Shown here one piece after another: positions 4,915 through 35,121 of a stretch of DNA of 41,610 nucleotides. Origin of the DNA: a virus (lineage: Duplodnaviria > Heunggongvirae > Uroviricota > Caudoviricetes); the IMG/VR virus record IMGVR_UViG_3300046355_000236; one strand, given 5' to 3'. The first letter of the stretch is position 1. Every line of letters begins with the position of its first letter. The translations under genes and the position numbers were made by a program. The notes beneath the pieces are model-generated. The model was not told where the DNA came from. It searched no databases and worked only from the letters and a program-made list of their open reading frames with translations.

Positions 4915-5283
4915 GTGAGTGGCCGCCGTAGTTTTATTAAAGGCTTTGGTATCCTCAGTGCTGTTTTCTCTGGCGGCGCTATTGCTAGTGCTACAACCCC
5001 AACACCAGCGCCTAGCCCTATCGCTGTCAATCCTGGCAATAACGATCTGCCTGTAAAGGAAGACATCAGTCACCTTGCTCCACCAAAGATGGACGTACCT
5101 GTGTTTTCCATTACTGGTGCGTATGGCGAAGACAACAAACCTCAACCAACATATCCTGGATCACCATATATGTTTGCCCCGCTCAATCCTAAAGTTACTA
5201 ACAAAGTCAATATAGCTGTAGGACGAGACAATCGTTTGTGGTTGGAGATTGATGGAGAATGGCGGAGAGTTGCAGTTGAATGA
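4915..5283 (+). CDS. Hypothetical protein with twin-arginine (Tat)-like signal peptide
   Basis: N-terminus SGRRSFIK, then a hydrophobic stretch and an ASA cleavage site, followed by a Pro-rich linker. GAGG RBS before the GTG start. Confidence 0.7.
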   Translation: MSGRRSFIKGFGILSAVFSGGAIASATTPTPAPSPIAVNPGNNDLPVKEDISHLAPPKMDVPVFSITGAYGEDNKPQPTYPGSPYMFAPLNPKVTNKVNIAVGRDNRLWLEIDGEWRRVAVE

Positions 5284-6093: not shown

Positions 6094-6518
6094 CGCCATT
6101 TGACTTTGTTAACAGCATTAACAGCCCTTCTAAGAAGGATTTGATGACTGATTCTGAAAACGACGAGCTAGCTGAAAGCTCGTATGTTCCTTTTATTGTC
6201 AATAAGACACTTTCCTACTTTCCAGAAACGATTCTCCACGCTAATGAGATGAACCGTGCTGGGGTAGATAATAAACTTCAATATCACTATCTTCTAAATA
6301 GCATCCGACCGGCAAAAAGATTTGCCAAGTGGGCGAAGAGTGAGATGACAGAGGATGTTGAAGCAGTGATGCAATACTATGGCTATAGTGCTGACAAGGC
6401 ACGACAAGCGCTCAAAATCCTCACCACAGACGACCTACACTACATAAAACAAAAATTAGAACGTGGTGGTAATCATGATAAAACTAGAGTCTCTAGTAGA
6501 GGTAAAACTAAAGATTGA
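6090..6518 (+). CDS. 62: Clamp loader small subunit (gp62)
   Basis: PFDFVNSIN, Y.PFIVNK.LS, ANEMN, LQY.YLLNSIR and YYGYS motifs, immediately upstream of regA. Confidence 0.92.
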   Translation: MTPFDFVNSINSPSKKDLMTDSENDELAESSYVPFIVNKTLSYFPETILHANEMNRAGVDNKLQYHYLLNSIRPAKRFAKWAKSEMTEDVEAVMQYYGYSADKARQALKILTTDDLHYIKQKLERGGNHDKTRVSSRGKTKD

Positions 6519-6870
6519 TGAAGATTTTCTGAAAGTCAAGGAAACATTGACTCGTATTGGTGTGGCTTCAAAGAAAGAAAAGAAGCTGTATCAGTCCTGT
6601 CATATTCTTCACAAGCAAGGACAGTACTACATTGTCCATTTCAAAGAGCTGTTTGCGCTCGATGGCAAACCAACAAACATTTCCGAAGATGATATTGCGC
6701 GTAGAAATACAATCGCAAACCTAATCACCGAGTGGGGCCTTGTTACGTTGGTTGATGCTGCAAAATCAAAAGCTCCAACTACCCCTATGTCTCAGATTAA
6801 AGTGATCCCACACAAAGAAAAGTCTGAGTGGGATCTTGTGACCAAATATTCAATTGGTCGTAAACTTTAA
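6475..6870 (+). CDS. regA: Translational repressor RegA
   Basis: DFLKVKETLTRIGVAS, LYQSCHILHKQG.YYIVHFKELFALDG and RRNTIA motifs. Confidence 0.97.
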   Translation: MIKLESLVEVKLKIDEDFLKVKETLTRIGVASKKEKKLYQSCHILHKQGQYYIVHFKELFALDGKPTNISEDDIARRNTIANLITEWGLVTLVDAAKSKAPTTPMSQIKVIPHKEKSEWDLVTKYSIGRKL

Positions 6871-7409
6871 ATTGTAAACGGCAACCATAACCACACTGCT
6901 TGTGAAAGCATCAGTGTAGCCGTTCCACCAACAGCTAAGCTAGCCCAGTACAGGCGCATATTAACTGCTAGAATCGATGCGGTCAAAAGAACGACAGCAA
7001 TCTGAAATAGTGAACCTGAATATGTATACCATGGGCTACGCGTCTTTGCAACAGCACGTTCCTTTTCAAGCCCACGTGCCTTTTCCATCAGAGCTTTCTT
7101 TCCCTCTTTAGGTTCATTGTCGTAGCGATCAATCTTTGCTTCCAATACAGCAGCCTTTTTCATATCCTTACGGGACATTGCATCATCATAAGCCATTTCA
7201 GCAAGAGTCTGTTTAATACTCTTTGCTTGATAGAATGACCATGTGTTGTTTGCTTCTATGGTGTTGTTTAGAATCTTAGAACTATTGCTACCACCGAAAT
7301 AGGTATTAAGGGCCAAAAGAGCAGCAAATACCACGATAACCCATCCAGCTTTATCTTTAATTTGGGCTTCTCTTTCGCTTCTACTAAGAGGCTTCTTTTC
7401 TTCTGTCAT
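6867..7409 (-). CDS. Membrane protein, DUF4337-like (TM - periplasmic coiled coil - 2 TM)
   Basis: WSFYQAKSIKQ and FQIAVVL.ASIL motifs recalled from DUF4337. GGAG RBS. Last gene of the minus-strand operon. Confidence 0.7.
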   Translation of the reverse strand: MTEEKKPLSRSEREAQIKDKAGWVIVVFAALLALNTYFGGSNSSKILNNTIEANNTWSFYQAKSIKQTLAEMAYDDAMSRKDMKKAAVLEAKIDRYDNEPKEGKKALMEKARGLEKERAVAKTRSPWYTYSGSLFQIAVVLLTASILAVNMRLYWASLAVGGTATLMLSQAVWLWLPFTI

Positions 7410-7417
7410 AATCGCTC

Positions 7418-7780
7418 CTAAAATTTTATTTTTAATCCAATTGATAAATTATTTACTATTGCAGACCCGTGGTCTGCAATAGTAAAATAGTAGTATATAC
7501 TTTTGTTACTATCGGACAAATCACTTTTGTAAACAGCGTAGTGTAATGCAAGTCTGGTAATGAAGTATAGATCTACTTCCCGTGTACTGGGTCTACTTCC
7601 AATAATTTTACTAGCAATGGGGCCTTTTTCAACAAACCCCTCATCATATCGTTGCGTCATATTACGTGTCGTGGACCAATCGCCTAAGATTAGTGCAGTG
7701 CCAGTCCACATCTCACCAATATGTTGAGCACTGCAGTTAAACGATAGCGCTAACAAAAATGATAGCACTAATAGTTTCAT
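7418..7780 (-). CDS. Exported hypothetical protein
   Basis: Sec signal MKLLVLSFLLALSFNCSA. C-terminus GLKIKF alternates and ends in Phe. Confidence 0.65.
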   Translation of the reverse strand: MKLLVLSFLLALSFNCSAQHIGEMWTGTALILGDWSTTRNMTQRYDEGFVEKGPIASKIIGSRPSTREVDLYFITRLALHYAVYKSDLSDSNKSIYYYFTIADHGSAIVNNLSIGLKIKF

Positions 7781-8331
7781 TTTGCTAATGGGTTATCAAT
7801 CGCTTTTTGGATCTTATTATCCACGTCGCGGTTAATTCGTTCTAACTTATTGTCGGTATCGCGCTTGAGTTTATCCATATCATCACGAGTACGGTCTAGG
7901 TTGGAACGTAGGTCTTTCTGCATGGCTTTTAGATCCATGTCTGTTTCACGCTGTGCTTGCTTAACACTGCGCTCGATCTGTTCTGTGACTGATTCGTTAC
8001 GACGAATGTCATTCTTTAGATCTGTCTTGATATCACGAGTATAGTCGGCACCCTTCTGGCTGTTTTCTTCGATCACCGCTAAGCGCTTATCGAATCCAGA
8101 AAGGTCAGGGGCTGAATACTCGGAGATTTTCTTTTTCATCCCTTGATAATCTTTGTACACTTCGAAGGCACCGTACAAACTACCAAGAGTTGATGATACA
8201 ATTGTGAACGCCACCATTAGTTTGGCGGGGGTGAATTCATATCCACCAATGCTAATAACTGTATCCTTACTAGCATATTTTTTAGCTGCTTCTTCTAACT
8301 TTTCTACTTCTTTGTTTAAGTCTTTTTCTGA
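7777..8331 (-). CDS. Single-TM anchored coiled-coil protein
   Basis: One TM segment (LMVAFTIVSSTLGSLYGAF) followed by about 110 aa of heptad-rich charged sequence. GGAG RBS before ATG 8331. Confidence 0.7.
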   Translation of the reverse strand, partial: SEKDLNKEVEKLEEAAKKYASKDTVISIGGYEFTPAKLMVAFTIVSSTLGSLYGAFEVYKDYQGMKKKISEYSAPDLSGFDKRLAVIEENSQKGADYTRDIKTDLKNDIRRNESVTEQIERSVKQAQRETDMDLKAMQKDLRSNLDRTRDDMDKLKRDTDNKLERINRDVDNKIQKAIDNPLAK

Positions 8332-8377
8332 CATTTTAACTTCTCCATTTATTTCCACAAAAATGGATTGAAAAATA

Positions 8378-8785
8378 TCATTTTTCGAATTTCATGTTCT
8401 TTAAATTACGTAGTTCACCTTCTAATTTTTCAAGTTCCATTCTCTTCTTTTCTAACTCAAGTTGATATAATACACTACAATCAACTCTACCTTTTGGCGC
8501 GCCAATCGGTATAATAATCCTTCCATATACACCTACATCTTTTGTGTTCGGTGTAACTGGGTTTGTTGTTATAATCTGATTATTGTTGTTACCAATGATA
8601 CCAACAACGCCAAACTCAACATTCGTGCCTGAACCAATAGCCATCGAGCAATCAAGTTCGCCAGCTCTAAATCTATCAGAGAGGTAACTACCAGGTGCGC
8701 TTGGTATAGCGAGGTTAAGTGACCCACCTTGAGAATAACTCAGGTTATACCACATTAGCAACAGTAATCCAAATAGATACTTCAT
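8378..8785 (-). CDS. Exported hypothetical protein (2 Cys, beta-hairpin plus C-terminal coiled coil)
   Basis: Signal peptide, LDCS...VEFGV...VGVYGRIIIPIG...VDCS core and an LELEKKRMELEKLE helix. Confidence 0.7.
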   Translation of the reverse strand: MKYLFGLLLLMWYNLSYSQGGSLNLAIPSAPGSYLSDRFRAGELDCSMAIGSGTNVEFGVVGIIGNNNNQIITTNPVTPNTKDVGVYGRIIIPIGAPKGRVDCSVLYQLELEKKRMELEKLEGELRNLKNMKFEK

Positions 8786-9165
8786 CTTACCTTCGAGCAG
8801 ATCTTTGAAGATATTACAGTGTTTTGTACGTCCTGTTTTTTAATTTTGGATTCGGTACAAATGTATGTAACACGTCTTATATCTTCTTTTCTAACATAAA
8901 CGTTTACTTGTTTTGTTTCAAGATACTTTATGTTAATCAGCTTGCTCTCAGATGCAAATGTTACTGGCCCCCAGTCGCTATCGAAAACACCCAGCTCATA
9001 ATATTCAACATCTTTACGTTTATTAAACAACTCCATCTTCGTGGTCATGACCCCATCGATGAATGAGTATTGAAACTTAGGATAAGTCGGCAAAAATTGG
9101 TGGGCGCTTGCTGTTGCACTCCCACCAATTATGATCATAATTATCACAAAAACATAATGAAACAT
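8782..9165 (-). CDS. Exported protein resembling the PapD/FimC pilus chaperone N-terminal domain
   Basis: Signal peptide ending ASA. The pattern PTYPKF / MELFN / YYELGVFD / INIKYLETKQVNVYV parallels the PapD-N strands. C-terminal Cys pair. Confidence 0.5.
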   Translation of the reverse strand: MFHYVFVIIMIIIGGSATASAHQFLPTYPKFQYSFIDGVMTTKMELFNKRKDVEYYELGVFDSDWGPVTFASESKLINIKYLETKQVNVYVRKEDIRRVTYICTESKIKKQDVQNTVISSKICSKVR

Positions 9166-9174
9166 AATATACTC

Positions 9175-9672
9175 TTAAACAGCGATACAGGATGCAGTCA
9201 CGATCGCTCTGTAGGTGCCGGCAGGGAATGCCTTGTTGTATCCGTACTCAGCTTTTGATTCTGCCTTGAACCACACAGAACCTGGAACAGTAAGACTGAT
9301 TTCTGTTGTGTTGTTATATTGCACTTTGTTAGTAGAATATGCAGACATTGCTGCATCTGTAACTCTGCTAACATCGACGTTACCTGTCCACTTTACAACA
9401 TCGGAAAGTGTTGGGCTCGTCGAGAAAGAGTTTGGGGTTGTAATAACAGCCTTGTAGAATCCGGACTGCACAACATCGTAACGAACGACTGGTTGTACAC
9501 CACCATCTACTGGAAGGGTGCTTAGTACACTTGGCGATGGGTTACCATATACGCCGGGTGTTTCTGTGTAGATTACACATCTGGATGTGACAATTCCTGT
9601 AATAGGAATATCCTCTGACGATGCAAACAGTGGTGTTGCAAGCAGAGCGGTTAATAGAATTTTTTTGAACAT
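9175..9672 (-). CDS. Exported chaperone-usher/SCPU-type pilin-like subunit
   Basis: Signal peptide, N-terminal IPITGIVTSRC (donor-strand-like), S/T/V-rich beta composition and C-terminal PAGTYRAIVTASC. AAGGA RBS. Confidence 0.55.
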   Translation of the reverse strand: MFKKILLTALLATPLFASSEDIPITGIVTSRCVIYTETPGVYGNPSPSVLSTLPVDGGVQPVVRYDVVQSGFYKAVITTPNSFSTSPTLSDVVKWTGNVDVSRVTDAAMSAYSTNKVQYNNTTEISLTVPGSVWFKAESKAEYGYNKAFPAGTYRAIVTASCIAV

Positions 9673-9699
9673 TTCTGTATCCTTGGTTTTGTTAGGGTG

Positions 9700-10563
9700 T
9701 TACTTATTGTATTGCGAATCTACCATTGCCCGGTGCAAACTTTCTTGTGCGAGGCCAAGACTTCTTGCTCTTCGTGAGTCTGGTAGCTTCTTGTCAGGAT
9801 AACTAAGAACTTCTTTGTATACACCACCTGGTATATTTATACTATACAAGTCTAAACCGGGTATATTATTCAACATTTCGAGTTGAGATGCCTTTTGTGC
9901 ATCCTCAGGCCGTACCATATTATTGGTTACAACCTTCTTTTCTGCGGGTTCTTTGTCGTTTTTTTTCGACTTAGATTCCACAGCAACCTTCTTTTCTTCT
10001 TCGAGGGTTGTTTTATTTTCTATTGCACTTTTTAGATACTCATTGGACAACGGATCTATTGGCTCAGCCGCTTTTAGTGTTAGGTTTTTGAGCATTGCTT
10101 CTGCATATCCTGGGCAACTTGGGCTGCTTAATGGATCAGAGCAGGTGTCGTATCTGTACTTGTATACAACGGATGGATTCTTGACAACACCTTTTCCGTC
10201 CACGGCAATCTCACCATCACCCCAATACTTACCGGCTATGTTATCAACAGGGATCACTTTAGTGATGGAGTTACCTGGAAGGCCAGACCAGTCGTCTTGT
10301 TTTCTGAATATAAACCCACTACCTAATGCGTTTTTGTTCTGAATAGAAACAACCATAGGATCTGCAGCGTTTTTTACAGTAGAATATTGGTATATCACAC
10401 CGTCAACTGTTAATCCTGTTATTGCAGGAAGAATACCGGGCATACTCCACGTCATCCCACCAGTTGCAGCGTTGGTGGTAGTTCCGTTCAATATCTCAGA
10501 GTAAGAGTAGGAGCAGCAAAGTAACGATGCCAAGGCCACCAAATAACGTCTTAGTACCATCAC
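9700..10563 (-). CDS. Exported hypothetical protein (beta-rich N-domain, CxDPLxxPxCPGY motif, charged helical C-domain)
   Basis: Signal peptide, beta-sandwich-like N-terminal half and a DTCSDPLSSPSCPGY Cys motif. Confidence 0.7.
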   Translation of the reverse strand: MMVLRRYLVALASLLCCSYSYSEILNGTTTNAATGGMTWSMPGILPAITGLTVDGVIYQYSTVKNAADPMVVSIQNKNALGSGFIFRKQDDWSGLPGNSITKVIPVDNIAGKYWGDGEIAVDGKGVVKNPSVVYKYRYDTCSDPLSSPSCPGYAEAMLKNLTLKAAEPIDPLSNEYLKSAIENKTTLEEEKKVAVESKSKKNDKEPAEKKVVTNNMVRPEDAQKASQLEMLNNIPGLDLYSINIPGGVYKEVLSYPDKKLPDSRRARSLGLAQESLHRAMVDSQYNK

Positions 10564-11041
10564 TCATTCCTTCTGTATTTTCTTCAATCTTACCTGGTTG
10601 AAGTTTCTTATTCGTTTTCCATTGTTCTTTAGCCTCTGCACCGATTGTTCCATCGAAAGGACATGGCGTACCAGCCATCATCATAGCGTCGAAGACTCGT
10701 TTATCCTGACAGAGTGTAGAAACTGCTGCTACCTTCATACCCATATCGTATAGGGTTTTGGATAGTTTCAATCGCTCACAATTCATGTCACGAACGGTTG
10801 TTCCAGCGGACAGACCTAAAATCTGTGTTTGAACAGCACCAGCGACGCCGACTGTACACAAATCCGAGTTGGATATGTTCATAGTAGGGGTAATAGCAGA
10901 TGCTGGAGGTGATTTGAGTGTTGTGACAGAATCAGAGTACGAATTCACCGTGCTTCTGGTGGTCGAATCTGTGACGATTGGCTCTGCGTTGGCCAATCCC
11001 ATGCTCATAATCAATAAAACGAAAAGGATGAATTTACTCAC
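10496..11041 (-). CDS. Exported Cys-rich protein with C-terminal membrane anchor
   Basis: Signal peptide ending ANA. SPPASAI..P, DLC, NCERLKLSK.L...GMKVAAVS.LCQD.RV..AM..AGTPCP motifs, and a terminal hydrophobic tail. AGGA RBS before the GTG start. Confidence 0.75.
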   Translation of the reverse strand: MSKFILFVLLIMSMGLANAEPIVTDSTTRSTVNSYSDSVTTLKSPPASAITPTMNISNSDLCTVGVAGAVQTQILGLSAGTTVRDMNCERLKLSKTLYDMGMKVAAVSTLCQDKRVFDAMMMAGTPCPFDGTIGAEAKEQWKTNKKLQPGKIEENTEGMSDGTKTLFGGLGIVTLLLLLLL

Positions 11042-11073
11042 GTGGTATTCCTAGGTTGCACTTGATCAGCCCA

Positions 11074-11081
11074 TATTTATA
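11074..11081 (-). promoter_or_regulatory. T4-type late promoter (gp55-dependent) TATAAATA
   Basis: Plus strand TATTTATA equals TATAAATA on the minus strand, 32 nt upstream of the first gene of the minus-strand operon. Confidence 0.75.
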
Positions 11082-11123: not shown

Positions 11124-11387
11124 ATGATTACATTTCAAGAAACCAAAGACGGATACTCGTTCTTTAAAGACCGCACAGTAGTTGCGGATGGTTGTTATGA
11201 GGACGGGAGCTTTCTCCTTATCCACAACGATCAAATGAGTTCTTTCGCCAACGCCCAACAAGCATTCGTTCATCTCAAAGGTACATATAATGAGCATTCT
11301 GTCCCTCTTAAACAGTCTACAATCGACCTCTTCACGCCTGGAAAAAGAGTCGATTCTTCGGTCCGAGCAAGACCATGCGCTGTTTAA
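11124..11387 (+). CDS. Hypothetical protein, possibly leaderless
   Basis: ATG lies 7 nt after the -10 box and has no SD. Its 3' end overlaps the ligase gene by 98 nt. Confidence 0.5.
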   Translation: MITFQETKDGYSFFKDRTVVADGCYEDGSFLLIHNDQMSSFANAQQAFVHLKGTYNEHSVPLKQSTIDLFTPGKRVDSSVRARPCAV

Positions 11388-12582
11388 ACAGGTCATTAAC
11401 CTTGCACTGAATCCCTTTATTCAGTTTTACATTCGCAAGATCCCGTCCTATACTCCTAATAATACGGAGCACGCTGCTTCGCTGGCGTCTATGTTGCCAG
11501 CGTTGGGTGATCTAAGCAAGCGAGTTGTTACAGGTCATGACGCTCGTGACCGCTTGCAGAGTATTCTATCTGTTGTGAGTGCTGATGACGCCCAAGTTAT
11601 CGAGCGAATCATTCAAAAGGATTTGAAGTGTGGAGTGTCGGATGGCACAGTCAATCGCGTGTGGAAAGACTTTATCCCTTCATATCCTGTGATGTTGTGC
11701 TCTCCGTATGATGACAAAGTCATTAAAAACATTACATTCCCTGCAATCGCTCAGCTCAAGCTGGATGGTATGCGGTTCAATGCAATCGTTGATGAGCACG
11801 GTGGTGTTACATTCCGTTCACGTAACGGCAAGACGTTGGATCTTTGTGGTGAGCTTGAGCAGGAGTTCTCAAGCCTGGGTCGCTCAGTCGTATTTGATGG
11901 GGAGTTGCTTGTTGTTGATGAGGAAGGCAAAATCATGCCTCGACAACAGGGCAATGGCATTATGTCTAAGTCCATCAAAGGAACGATGACAAAAGAGTTG
12001 TCTGCACGTGTTCGAGCAAACTTGTGGGATGTGATTCCCTTGGAAGACTTCCAAAAAGGAAAGTGCAATCGTTCTTACTCGCTTCGCTTCGCTGCTTTGA
12101 ATGATTATGATCTTCCTGAGAAGATCTCAATTGTCGAAACCACATATGTTGATTCGTTGGATGCTGCTCGTGATATCTTCCAGATCTATCTGGAGCAAGG
12201 TCAAGAAGGCATTATTCTCAAAGATGCAAAAGGTATCTGGGAAGACAAGCGCGTCAAGAATCAGATCAAGTTTAAAGCTGAGCTGGAATGTGATTTGAAG
12301 ATTGTCAAATGGGAAATCGGTACAGGTAAAAACGCTGGTCGTTTGGGTGCATTGATTGCAGAAACCAGTGATGGCTTGTTGACAACTGGTGTCGGTACAG
12401 GTTATAGTGACGATGATCGCGATAACATTAAAGAAGATGTTGTCGGTAAGATCGTCACTGTAAAATACAATGGGTTGATTGTTGATACAAAGACAGGACA
12501 ATACAGTTTGTTCTTGCCCGTCTTTGTTGAGATCCGAGAAGACAAAACACAAGCAGATTCGCTTGAACAATTGAAAGGTTGA
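11290..12582 (+). CDS. 30: ATP-dependent DNA ligase (gp30)
   Basis: KLDGMR adenylation motif, FDGEL, EGIILK, KFK, and SLFLPVF.EIREDK. Confidence 0.96.
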   Translation: MSILSLLNSLQSTSSRLEKESILRSEQDHALFKQVINLALNPFIQFYIRKIPSYTPNNTEHAASLASMLPALGDLSKRVVTGHDARDRLQSILSVVSADDAQVIERIIQKDLKCGVSDGTVNRVWKDFIPSYPVMLCSPYDDKVIKNITFPAIAQLKLDGMRFNAIVDEHGGVTFRSRNGKTLDLCGELEQEFSSLGRSVVFDGELLVVDEEGKIMPRQQGNGIMSKSIKGTMTKELSARVRANLWDVIPLEDFQKGKCNRSYSLRFAALNDYDLPEKISIVETTYVDSLDAARDIFQIYLEQGQEGIILKDAKGIWEDKRVKNQIKFKAELECDLKIVKWEIGTGKNAGRLGALIAETSDGLLTTGVGTGYSDDDRDNIKEDVVGKIVTVKYNGLIVDTKTGQYSLFLPVFVEIREDKTQADSLEQLKG

Positions 12583-32738: not shown

Positions 32739-32965
32739 AAACATTCAAGCAATTTTTAGAATGTGCCGATATGTGCAGAGTGTGTGGTCAGACGCCATGC
32801 AACTGTACACATATTGAGGAAGAGATTGCAGTTAATAATGCCGGAAGTGGGAACGTGCCAGGTATAGGGGTTGGACCCCAAGGTGAGCCTGGTGGTCGTA
32901 AAGCTATTATGAACAAGATGTTCAAGCGAAAGGCAGCTAATGTGGGTATTAAAGTTTCTACCTGA
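32735..32965 (+). CDS. Small protein with CTS-like N-terminus and Cys cluster
   Basis: MKTFKQFLE followed by CRVCGQTPCNC and NNAGSG..G.G..GEPG. Confidence 0.65.
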   Translation: MKTFKQFLECADMCRVCGQTPCNCTHIEEEIAVNNAGSGNVPGIGVGPQGEPGGRKAIMNKMFKRKAANVGIKVST

Positions 32966-33347
32966 TTGGATATTCTACGCAATATTAATTCTAGGATTCG
33001 CTGGATTAGTTTTAAGTAAGTTCGTCCCTGTATATTACAGAACAGCAGTACAAGCCGCATCAGCGGCTTTCTTTGTTTTTGGAATTTATATGGCAGGTGC
33101 TATCTACGACAACAATGCATGGAAAGCCCGTGTAAACGAGTTAGAAAAGAAGGTTGCAGAGGCGCAAGCAGAATCCGCAAAAGAGAATACAAAGATCGTA
33201 GAGAAGGTAATCACTAAGCGTGAGTATTATCGCGAACGTGGAAACGATATTATCAACTACATTGATCGAGAAATTGTTAAGTATGACGCGTCATGCGAAA
33301 TACCTAAGGAGTTCATTGAAGTACATAATAAGGCAGCAACGAAATGA
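32940..33347 (+). CDS. Inner-membrane spanin (Rz-like)
   Basis: N-terminal TM segments, a coiled coil and a C-terminal C.IP..F..HN, overlapping the lipoprotein gene. Confidence 0.7.
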   Translation: MWVLKFLPDWIFYAILILGFAGLVLSKFVPVYYRTAVQAASAAFFVFGIYMAGAIYDNNAWKARVNELEKKVAEAQAESAKENTKIVEKVITKREYYRERGNDIINYIDREIVKYDASCEIPKEFIEVHNKAATK

Positions 33348-33601
33348 AATACATTCTTCTTACATTGTTGTTGACAGGATGTACAACTGTTCCTGTCGTT
33401 GCTAAGTTTCCAGAAGCTCCTTCACAGCTCTTGGAAGCATGCCCTGAACTACAAAAACTAAACGACCAAGCAAAGCTGAGTGATATTTCCAAAACAGCTG
33501 TGCTTAATTATACCACATATTATCAATGCACTTCAAAGACAGAAGCATGGATTGATTGGTATCGAACACAAAAGAAAATATTTGAAGGTATAACCAAATG
33601 A
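33344..33601 (+). CDS. Outer-membrane spanin lipoprotein (Rz1-like)
   Basis: Lipobox LLLTGC, Pro-rich P..P..LL..CP.L and NY..Y..C motifs. Confidence 0.8.
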   Translation: MKYILLTLLLTGCTTVPVVAKFPEAPSQLLEACPELQKLNDQAKLSDISKTAVLNYTTYYQCTSKTEAWIDWYRTQKKIFEGITK

Positions 33602-34011
33602 AAACATTCAATCAATTTATCAACGAAGGTCTTTGGGACAATATTCATGCAAAACGTAAGCGTATTGCTAAAGGATCCGGTGAAAAGATGCGTGCCCCAG
33701 GATCAAAAGGAGCCCCGACAAAACAGAATTTTGTCGATGCACAGGAATCCGCTGCATGGACCCGAAAGGCTGGTAAGAATCCTGATGGAGGCTTGAACAA
33801 AAAAGGGATCGCCTCTTACCGCAGAGAAAACCCAGGATCAAAACTGTCAATGGCTGTAACAACAAAGCCATCGAAACTTGATCCTGATTCAAAGGCAGCA
33901 AAACGTCGTGATAGTTTCTGCGCTCGAATGAGCGGAGTAGATGGTCCGATGAAAAAGCCAAACGGTGAGCCAACACGAAAGGCTCTTGCTCTAAGAAAAT
34001 GGAATTGCTAA
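33598..34011 (+). CDS. Conserved basic phage protein with CTS-like N-terminus
   Basis: MKTFNQFINE, GLWDNIHAKRKR, and AW.RK.GKN..GGLN.KG..SYRRENPGSKL...RR.SFCARM...LRKWNC. Confidence 0.75.
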   Translation: MKTFNQFINEGLWDNIHAKRKRIAKGSGEKMRAPGSKGAPTKQNFVDAQESAAWTRKAGKNPDGGLNKKGIASYRRENPGSKLSMAVTTKPSKLDPDSKAAKRRDSFCARMSGVDGPMKKPNGEPTRKALALRKWNC

Positions 34012-34013
34012 AA

Positions 34014-34646
34014 ATGGAACTAACAAAAGAACAACTAAAACAATTACTTCCAAAAAATCCATACATCGATTACTGGCACAATGCTCTTTCGCAGCTACTG
34101 CCAGAGTATGAGATCAACACTCCTCAACGTATTGCAGCATTCATCGCTCAGTGCTCTCACGAGTCTGGCGGGTTTACTGCACTAAAAGAGAATCTGAATT
34201 ACCGTGCTGTAACTTTGAGAAAAATCTTCCCAAAGTATTTTCCTACAGATGAGATTGCAAATCAATATGCTTCAATGCCTAATAAGCAAGCAGCAATTGC
34301 AAACCGTGTGTACGCAAACCGTATGGGTAATGGGGATGAGGCTTCGGGCGATGGTTACAGATATTGTGGCCGTGGCTTGATCCAATTGACTGGTAAGGAA
34401 AACTATACATGGTTTGCTGCAAGTCTTGAAATCTCTGTTGAGGAAGCTGCTGAGTATCTTCAAACGTTTGAAGGTGCTGCTCAGTCAGCATGCTGGTTCT
34501 GGGAAACTAATAACCTGAACCAATGGGCCGATAAGGGTGATATTCTTACATTAACAAAGCGAATTAACGGTGGTACTATCGGGTTAGAGGATCGTATTAA
34601 ACATTATAAACACGCTTTGCATGTATTAGGAGTAGACCATGGCTGA
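34014..34646 (+). CDS. Endolysin, glycoside hydrolase family 19
   Basis: R.AAFIAQC.HESGGF..L.ENLNY, Y.NRMGNG, GRGLIQLTGK.NY and INGG.IGL.DR motifs. Confidence 0.92.
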   Translation: MELTKEQLKQLLPKNPYIDYWHNALSQLLPEYEINTPQRIAAFIAQCSHESGGFTALKENLNYRAVTLRKIFPKYFPTDEIANQYASMPNKQAAIANRVYANRMGNGDEASGDGYRYCGRGLIQLTGKENYTWFAASLEISVEEAAEYLQTFEGAAQSACWFWETNNLNQWADKGDILTLTKRINGGTIGLEDRIKHYKHALHVLGVDHG

Positions 34647-35121
34647 TGAAGTAAAACAAGAAGAAAAAGCACCGGAAGATTGGATGACCAAGAAGTGGCG
34701 TCCAATGATGGCAATGATGTATATGATCTGCTGTCTATTTGACTTTGCGCTATTCCCGATCATGTTCACTGTTGTTCAGTTCTGGGAAGTGCAAGCAGCA
34801 AATGATGCATTCCGTCAATGGGTACCAATCACACTGCAAGGTGGTGGTCTGTTCCACGTTGCAATGGGTGCTGTCCTTGGTGTATCTGCATATGGCCGTA
34901 CACAGGAAAAGGTTGCTGGCGCTGCTGGTGGTCCTTCTTTGCCTGCTGGTCTACCGACACAAACAATTGCACCAACACCGGCTCCTGCGCCAGTGCAATA
35001 CAGTGCTCCAGCACCGCAAATTGAACCAACATATATACCTCAAACTATTAATCAACCACAGGTTGTAGTAGGATTTGGCGGTAAACCAGCGCCTGCCCCA
35101 GCACCGCAACCACTCCTATAA
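34639..35121 (+). CDS. Holin (GTA 3TM-holin-like) with Pro-rich tail
   Basis: WRPMM...Y and GLFHVAMGAVLG..AYGRTQEK motifs, adjacent to the endolysin. Confidence 0.75.
   Translation: MADEVKQEEKAPEDWMTKKWRPMMAMMYMICCLFDFALFPIMFTVVQFWEVQAANDAFRQWVPITLQGGGLFHVAMGAVLGVSAYGRTQEKVAGAAGGPSLPAGLPTQTIAPTPAPAPVQYSAPAPQIEPTYIPQTINQPQVVVGFGGKPAPAPAPQPLL

Follow-up and report, generated by a model that had tools for sequence, protein, structure and literature searches.

A phage gene block with lectin-like, pilin-like and chaperone-like products: a candidate usher-less surface fibre

The gene block and its layers

The 41,610-nucleotide IMG/VR virus record IMGVR_UViG_3300046355_000236 (the whole stretch analysed, called the window here) stems from a T4-like phage, for which the sliding clamp, clamp loader, regA, ligase, DNA polymerase, UvsX, helicase and primase were all found. 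Between regA (6463-6870, PF01818) and the DNA ligase gene (11290-12582) lie eight tightly packed open reading frames (ORFs) on the minus strand, g1 to g8, all present where an original prediction, made from the sequence alone, had placed a candidate cell-surface appendage system. All genes annotated outside the block are on the plus strand (an observation on the annotation and not a formal test that this is the only antisense block). The module to which these genes belong is real, widespread and undescribed. Only g8 has a Pfam name (DUF4337), and g1, g4 and g5 match PHROGs of unknown function (phrog_20531 in the case of g1). Pfam and NCBIfam scans of g1 to g7 gave no significant family name, and sequence searches of the PDB with profiles of g1, g2, g3, g4 and g5 returned nothing significant.

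The block consists of three layers: a phage core of g1, g2 and g6, a co-occurring set of g3, g4 and g5, and the loose companions g7 and g8. Within the limits of the contigs, all 25 viral loci found via g3 keep the order g1 to g6, and both g7 and g8 are absent from every one of them. Among the non-redundant loci with g1, g2 and g6, all 76 six-gene cassettes contain g3, g4 and g5 together with a g2 of 278-334 amino acids (aa), whereas the 35 cassettes without g3-g5 (the three-gene form) have in every case a g2 of 415-853 aa; searches with g1 and g8 revealed the three-gene form. The sample of the two architectures is biased by the queries, but the length ranges of g2 do not overlap. The co-conservation looked for across all eight genes thus holds for g1-g6 and fails for g7 and g8, which accompany mainly the three-gene form. 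A tblastn search with g3 matched no cultured phage. Two unnamed families of small genes (examples at L158 9805-10287 and L095 7333-7662) are repeatedly found beside the cassette (21 and 28 of 132 loci, respectively) and sometimes sit between g2 or g5 and g6.

The DUF4337-like membrane protein expected among the products is g8 (6867-7409, minus strand, 180 aa), which matches PF14235 with an E value of 6.8e-30 and 104.8 bits, above the curated cut-off of 27. The distance between g8 and core genes is 6 kb or less in 32 of 80 loci (25 of 60 non-redundant ones), irrespective of side and strand, making g8 a recurrent companion of g1-g2-g6; together with g3-g5 it occurs among the g8 loci in this window only. 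The exported, Phe-terminated protein g7 (7418-7780, minus strand, 120 aa) is a sporadic companion with a single homolog (E 2.5e-17), located behind g6 in locus L214, and a pattern scan for further g7 relatives found none. A hairpin of 16 pairs within g7 (7452-7486, minus strand) was flagged as terminator-like.

The T4 late-promoter motif ascribed to the block was confirmed: the T4-type motif TATAAATA lies at 11074-11081 on the minus strand, 33 nt upstream of g1. Its count in the window alone is not above chance (4 against 1.47 expected; 8 of 100 shuffles reach 4). Of 123 non-redundant loci, however, 32 show the exact motif between −150 and +60 relative to the start of g1, as against 565 of 26,400 random 210-nt windows (2.1 %); the position of the late motif near g1 is conserved. 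In 10 of 28 loci with T4 replication neighbours, CATAAATA is present instead of the motif at −51 to −87 of g1. It is also CATAAATA that replaces TATAAATA 51-87 nt before g1 in the closest relatives of the window (L001-L025 and related loci), possibly as a variant late promoter. A second copy of TATAAATA inside g2 (9834-9841) was rejected as a promoter; its position recurs in 2 of 65 loci, the window included.

Products of the trio and of the phage core

Signal peptides were judged by hydropathy (a hydrophobic h-region before the presumed mature start) and not by SignalP. Such a region precedes the mature start in 84 of 84 homologs of g1, 74 of 77 of g2, 68 of 69 of g3, 67 of 67 of g4 and 63 of 63 of g5, whereas the same test was positive for 3 of 20 cytoplasmic proteins of the window used as a control. 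In g7 the hydrophobic region comprises residues 1-14. As for the two proteins said to be membrane anchored, g8 is a membrane protein of the DUF4337 type, but the anchor of g6 stays below the hydropathy thresholds. Cysteine pairs, ascribed to most of the exported proteins, are invariant in g1, g3, g4 and g5 and nearly so in g2, but g7 has a single Cys; g6 and g8 contain none. A lipobox-like motif is present in only 1-3 of the 63-84 members of each family from g1 to g5. The products of the block are predicted to reach the envelope of the host.

The model of g3 (9175-9672, minus strand, 165 aa; pLDDT 90.6) is a pilin-like beta-sandwich of the Ig type spanning residues 32-164, with residues 12-31 unpaired and the invariant cysteines C32 and C162. 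The top ranks of its Foldseek search are mostly occupied by donor-strand pilins (CfaB, FimG, a FimD-tip subunit, the PapG pilin domain, Caf1, CupE and CsuA/B), with E values from 1e-3 to 3e-2. The product of g4 (8782-9165, minus strand, 127 aa; pLDDT 89.3) is modelled as a single PapD-like domain with the invariant cysteines C103 and C123. It aligns to the N-terminal domain of FimC (residues 1-114; Z 10.8, rmsd 2.4, 98 residues aligned), to that of SafB (Z 10.6, rmsd 3.1, 103 residues) and to the first domains of YadV, CfaA and PapD (Z 9.8-10.8 overall, PapD 9.8). The two domains of a classical chaperone are not present in g4, whose 67 aligned homologs measure 120-140 aa and whose cellular forms measure about 115-170 aa; a longer, fused form was not found, which is weak evidence. 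Atlas matches offered leads only, namely SCPU (0.95) for g3, where 15 % of the cluster carries the family, and PapD_N (0.81) for g4. The predicted folds therefore support the pilin and the mini-chaperone of the original prediction: g3 is predicted to be a donor-strand pilin-like subunit and g4 to correspond to the first domain only of FimC/PapD chaperones.

The third member of the set, g5 (8378-8785, minus strand, 135 aa), comprises a signal peptide, a Cys-closed pair of amphipathic strands and a C-terminal heptad-like helix. The conserved strands alternate between hydrophobic and polar residues, with the conserved E57 and R89 on the polar face. The protein might be an oligomeric outer-membrane outlet in the place of an usher, an assignment for which the odds appear about even; a predicted complex of four copies scored 0.35 against a mark of 0.42 and counts neither way. 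A g5 profile run over 1.8 billion proteins found 415 relatives, 141 of them at E 1e-10 or better. Among 79 distant relatives scanned, fusion to a peptidoglycan-binding domain of the OmpA type was seen in two and a weak SPOR match in one; these relatives include a protein of Vibrio pectenicida encoded on a contig of 1.16 Mb. By these fusions the C-terminus of g5 would lie at the peptidoglycan, with the hairpin directed towards the outer membrane. In Vibrio aquimaris (L258 8938-9651) g5 is likewise fused to an OmpA-like domain, the start being apparently frame-disrupted.

Beyond the phage cassettes, g3, g4 and g5 form stand-alone operons. Genes flanking g5 on a Mesorhizobium plasmid are matched by the phage profiles of g3 (E 1e-5) and g4 (3e-5), and the gene beside g5 on a Vibrio plasmid by that of g4 (1e-4). 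The Vibrio replicons and the Erwinia phage pEp_SNUABM_01 keep the arrangement of the trio with weaker pilin scores or none. This cultured lytic phage carries the bare trio: chaperone, g5 and a pilin-like gene lie amid tRNA genes (L259 5613-6875), and g1, g2 and g6 are lacking. A survey of 86 loci (plasmids, the Erwinia phage, the genome G134 and metagenomes) yielded 72 distinct g5 sequences. Fifty non-redundant loci contain 1.5 kb upstream of g5; a chaperone was found there in 47, a pilin in 41 and both in 39. The unrefined phage profiles directly matched 31 pilin and 26 chaperone ORFs, the remainder being reached by iteration, and some pilins were masked by wrongly extended ORFs. In nearly all loci g5 directly follows g4, and g1, g2 or g6 is near g5 in just 6 of 72.

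Bacterial operons of pilin, one-domain chaperone and g5 are found at L255 8113-9940, L256 7294-9396, L257 8663-10892, L265 7380-8700, L273 4077-5978 and L299 4022-5800. They often contain extra pilins, and the one in L299 sits between a gene for a PLP enzyme and trpA. Of 249 listed neighbours of the trio, 88 were scanned, namely the larger ORFs and, in the longer loci, the genes of the trio; one or two of the 88 were included by hand. The neighbours have housekeeping or signalling functions, and three of the loci contain EAL or GGDEF genes. None of the 88 neighbours, from cellular and phage trios, belongs to the usher family (PF00577), and the phage cassette has no large ORF that could hold an usher of about 800 aa. 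The genome G134, which holds a trio, gave no usher match when searched whole, the E. coli control being positive. The cellular trio has a patchy distribution: of 401 genomes sampled around one reference bin, 2 were matched by the g5 profile, and of 400 around another, none; one of the two positives is the centre bin itself, where the matches are probably phage contigs.

Within the phage core, g1 (10496-11041, minus strand, 181 aa) is universal. It is composed of a signal peptide, a Ser/Thr-rich stretch, four invariant cysteines around a Gly/Ala-rich hairpin-like segment and a C-terminal hydrophobic anchor kept in 81 of 84 homologs. An estimated 2,800 or so stretches in IMG/VR contain it, and 13 annotated phage records carry it, six of them pelagiphages; in most g1 phage records the next genes encode a long exported protein and a coiled-coil protein with an NPL-like end. 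A scan of GTDB gave 32 loci, all in metagenome bins and several on phage-like contigs, by which a cellular g1 core is not shown. In Ralstonia phage RSP15 (L031 5374-6321) g1 occurs alone, and its N-terminal region is long and rich in Gly, Asn and Gln. A paralogy of g1 and g5 was rejected, as their alignment is limited to the signal peptides.

The second core gene occurs in two forms. Long g2 proteins begin with a signal peptide and an N-terminal domain, which are followed by Cys-pair repeats in tandem (about 22 residues each), a linker and a conserved C-terminal domain. The g2 of the window (9700-10563, minus strand, 287 aa) contains a signal peptide, a reduced FBA-lectin-like domain, one Cys-pair repeat, a charged linker and the conserved C-terminal domain. 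Searched as a profile, the N-domain of the long form matches the glycan-binding FBA domains of FBXO6 (E 2e-5), FBXO44 and FBXO2, and the short g2 family of the six-gene cassettes, to which the g2 of the window belongs, is homologous to this domain (95.9 %) with the corresponding loop shortened. The earlier suggestion that the 287-aa protein is an adhesin gains support from this homology to a glycan-binding fold, and g2 is likely the tip adhesin. Two long g2 proteins carry an unrelated N-domain, which we take to be NIDO-like, so that the tip appears exchangeable.

The last core gene, g6 (7777-8334, minus strand, 185 aa from the ATG at 8334), encodes a weakly hydrophobic N-terminal anchor, a coiled-coil-like region of about 125 residues, which would extend about 18 nm as a single helix, and an invariant C-terminal NPL. 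Within the core, g1 and g6 would serve as anchors and g2 as the tip.

A candidate fibre and the alternatives

With a probability of roughly one half, the block likely makes the infected cell grow an usher-less pilus or adhesive fibre as an extension for a phage adhesin. The proteins would be exported late in infection, and in the periplasm the pilin-like g3 may be held by g4, the half-size chaperone. The pilin would polymerise by donor-strand exchange and pass through an oligomer of g5 as the outer-membrane outlet. The older core would display g2, and its other members may serve as inner-membrane rod (g6) and anchor (g1). In phages without the trio the length may come from the repeat stalk within g2, whereas in those with the trio g2 is short and the length would be contributed by the g3 polymer. 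The likely use is that the doomed cell sticks to neighbouring hosts or particles, so that progeny would be freed near new hosts; the fibre may also mask receptors or deter grazers.

Several points weigh against this proposal. No Foldseek match of g3 passes E 1e-3, the TM-scores are 0.3-0.5, and a wide VIA search places staphylococcal MSCRAMM domains first (best Z 7.9, none at 8 or above), its matches being generic Ig-like. Classical pilins end in an aromatic residue, and g3 has a Cys near the C-terminus instead. The scores of g4 tie with those of MSP/VAP domains and a glycosidase domain, hence its fold is not chaperone-specific. Apart from a weak FimH match (E 0.036), the 69 members of g3 and 67 of g4 match no Pfam pilin or PapD family. 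The OmpA-fused g5 of V. aquimaris has neither pilin nor chaperone nearby, and the whole-genome usher search covers one cellular genome, G134, of unstated completeness. In 23 of the 84 six-gene loci and 5 of the 25 three-gene ones there is an endolysin gene no more than 3.5 kb away. Furthermore, a lytic phage presumably has little time to use a fibre.

The linkage to lysis genes leads to another explanation, in which the products form a scaffold in the periplasm or across the envelope with a role at lysis, for instance in shaping the disruption of the outer membrane, and no surface fibre is made. The late promoter and the i-spanin-like outline of g6 agree with it, and genes for lysozyme, M15 peptidase or a holin-like protein are found near the g1- and g6-like genes of cultured pelagiphages and roseophages. 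Lysis genes (labelled from one representative per cluster) come within 3.5 kb of the cassette in 27 of the 84 six-gene loci and in 5 of the 25 three-gene ones; however, 57 of the 84 six-gene loci have none nearby. The window itself has a complete, separate lysis cassette (32940-35121, plus strand) 22 kb from the block, composed of an i-spanin-like gene, an Rz1-like lipoprotein gene (the spanin pair, 32940-33601), a GH19 endolysin and a holin-like gene; members of these families also adjoin the block in other phages. Canonical spanin pairs are also found directly beside the cassette in 10 six-gene loci and one three-gene locus. Spanins are thus not replaced, and a role of the block as a spanin substitute is ruled out by the window's own pair and by these 11 loci; since both coexist, the linkage is best read as shared late timing. 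Moreover, the trio lies amid housekeeping genes in bacterial chromosomes, and lysis has no need of a lectin-like tip on a stalk of variable length, which leaves the scaffold an unlikely explanation.

Alternatively, the parts could be made in the envelope and act after lysis, as released fibres, vesicle-bound decoys or a glycan-binding coat acquired by the virion. The late motif, the exchangeable tips of glycan-binding type and the position of the cassette next to tail-fibre assembly and terminase genes in several non-T4 phages would fit such a use. It is nevertheless rather improbable, as the core is tied to the cell by the anchor of g1 (81 of 84) and probably that of g6, and the cellular trio shows the parts to be kept by intact cells. 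Even more doubtful is a dependence on the host, whereby g3 and g4 feed a host usher or another outer-membrane channel and g5 is a periplasmic adaptor only. The chaperone-usher-type folds of g3 and g4 would be compatible with it, and the pore ascribed to g5 is putative; yet no usher is present in G134 or beside the trio, g4 has no second chaperone domain, and g5 comes right after g4 in nearly all loci.

The usher-less fibre on the infected cell is therefore preferred here. If it is correct, pili can be assembled with a protein of 135 residues in the role of the 800-residue usher, and lytic phages remodel the surface of infected cells for adhesion. A wider proposal is tentative: Gram-negative bacteria would have an undescribed, minimal pilus pathway of three genes, for a pilin, a chaperone of one domain and a small hairpin protein that forms an oligomeric pore in the outer membrane, and lytic aquatic phages of several lineages would have joined it to their lectin display so as to grow adhesive fibres on infected cells. 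The core gene is very common in aquatic viruses and present in cultured pelagiphages, and the trio is readily testable, as it consists of three short genes found also in cultured bacteria such as a Mesorhizobium strain.

The spanin pair of the phage implies a host with an outer membrane. Freshwater metagenomes are the best holders of the DNA, with at least half of the sampled words in 7 of the 24 runs listed (two of them possibly the source); no RNA holder was among the runs listed. A small protein encoded at 4915-5283 (plus strand) has an RRSFIKG start, which we take to be twin-arginine-like, and a hydrophobic stretch, and may be exported by the Tat route.

Relation to known systems

A literature search, largely without subscription papers, found no description of the module, and its genes are not treated in the passages seen of PMC6811365 and PMC13712998. 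Two-component spanins (Rz/Rz1) resemble g6 in the N-terminal anchor, the long periplasmic coiled-coil-like region and late expression, but the block has no lipoprotein partner (at most 3 members per g1-g5 family carry a lipobox-like motif) and true spanins exist in the same genomes. The N-domain of long g2 proteins shares the motif G-x-D-x-x-W-A-G-x-Y-G with the FBA domains of FBXO2, FBXO6 and FBXO44; g2 differs in being an exported phage protein, in the six-gene form with a shortened loop.

Donor-strand filaments without an usher are reported to include the cannulae of Pyrodictium, archaeal bundling pili and the Elr pilus of Enterococcus (10.1101/2024.12.30.630787, 10.64898/2026.10.17.759780). 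The alignment of g3 with the Pyrodictium cannula subunit covers 137 of 149 residues, the N-terminal stretch among them (Z 6.0, rmsd 3.7; Foldseek E 0.013), and that of g4 with WxLIP covers 101 residues (Z 9.1, rmsd 3.0). These scores are middling; in contrast to the block, none of these filaments is phage-encoded and their organisms have no outer membrane.

The closest likeness is to chaperone-usher pili (FimC/FimG of type 1 pili, PapD of P pili, CfaA/CfaB of CFA/I, Caf1M/Caf1, and the archaic Csu and CupE), with which the block has in common a subunit modelled as pilin-like with a free N-terminal extension, a PapD-like chaperone domain, Sec-type signal peptides and disulfides; the EAL or GGDEF genes near three cellular trio loci are a further likeness. 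However, neither the block nor the trio includes an usher; of the two chaperone domains a single one is present; the usher's place in the operon is taken by a hairpin protein of 135 aa; and there is no family match at the sequence level. In phages, moreover, the trio is nested within the separate g1-g2-g6 module. The block likely works like a chaperone-usher pilus but is not a member of that class, the usher and the second chaperone domain being missing.

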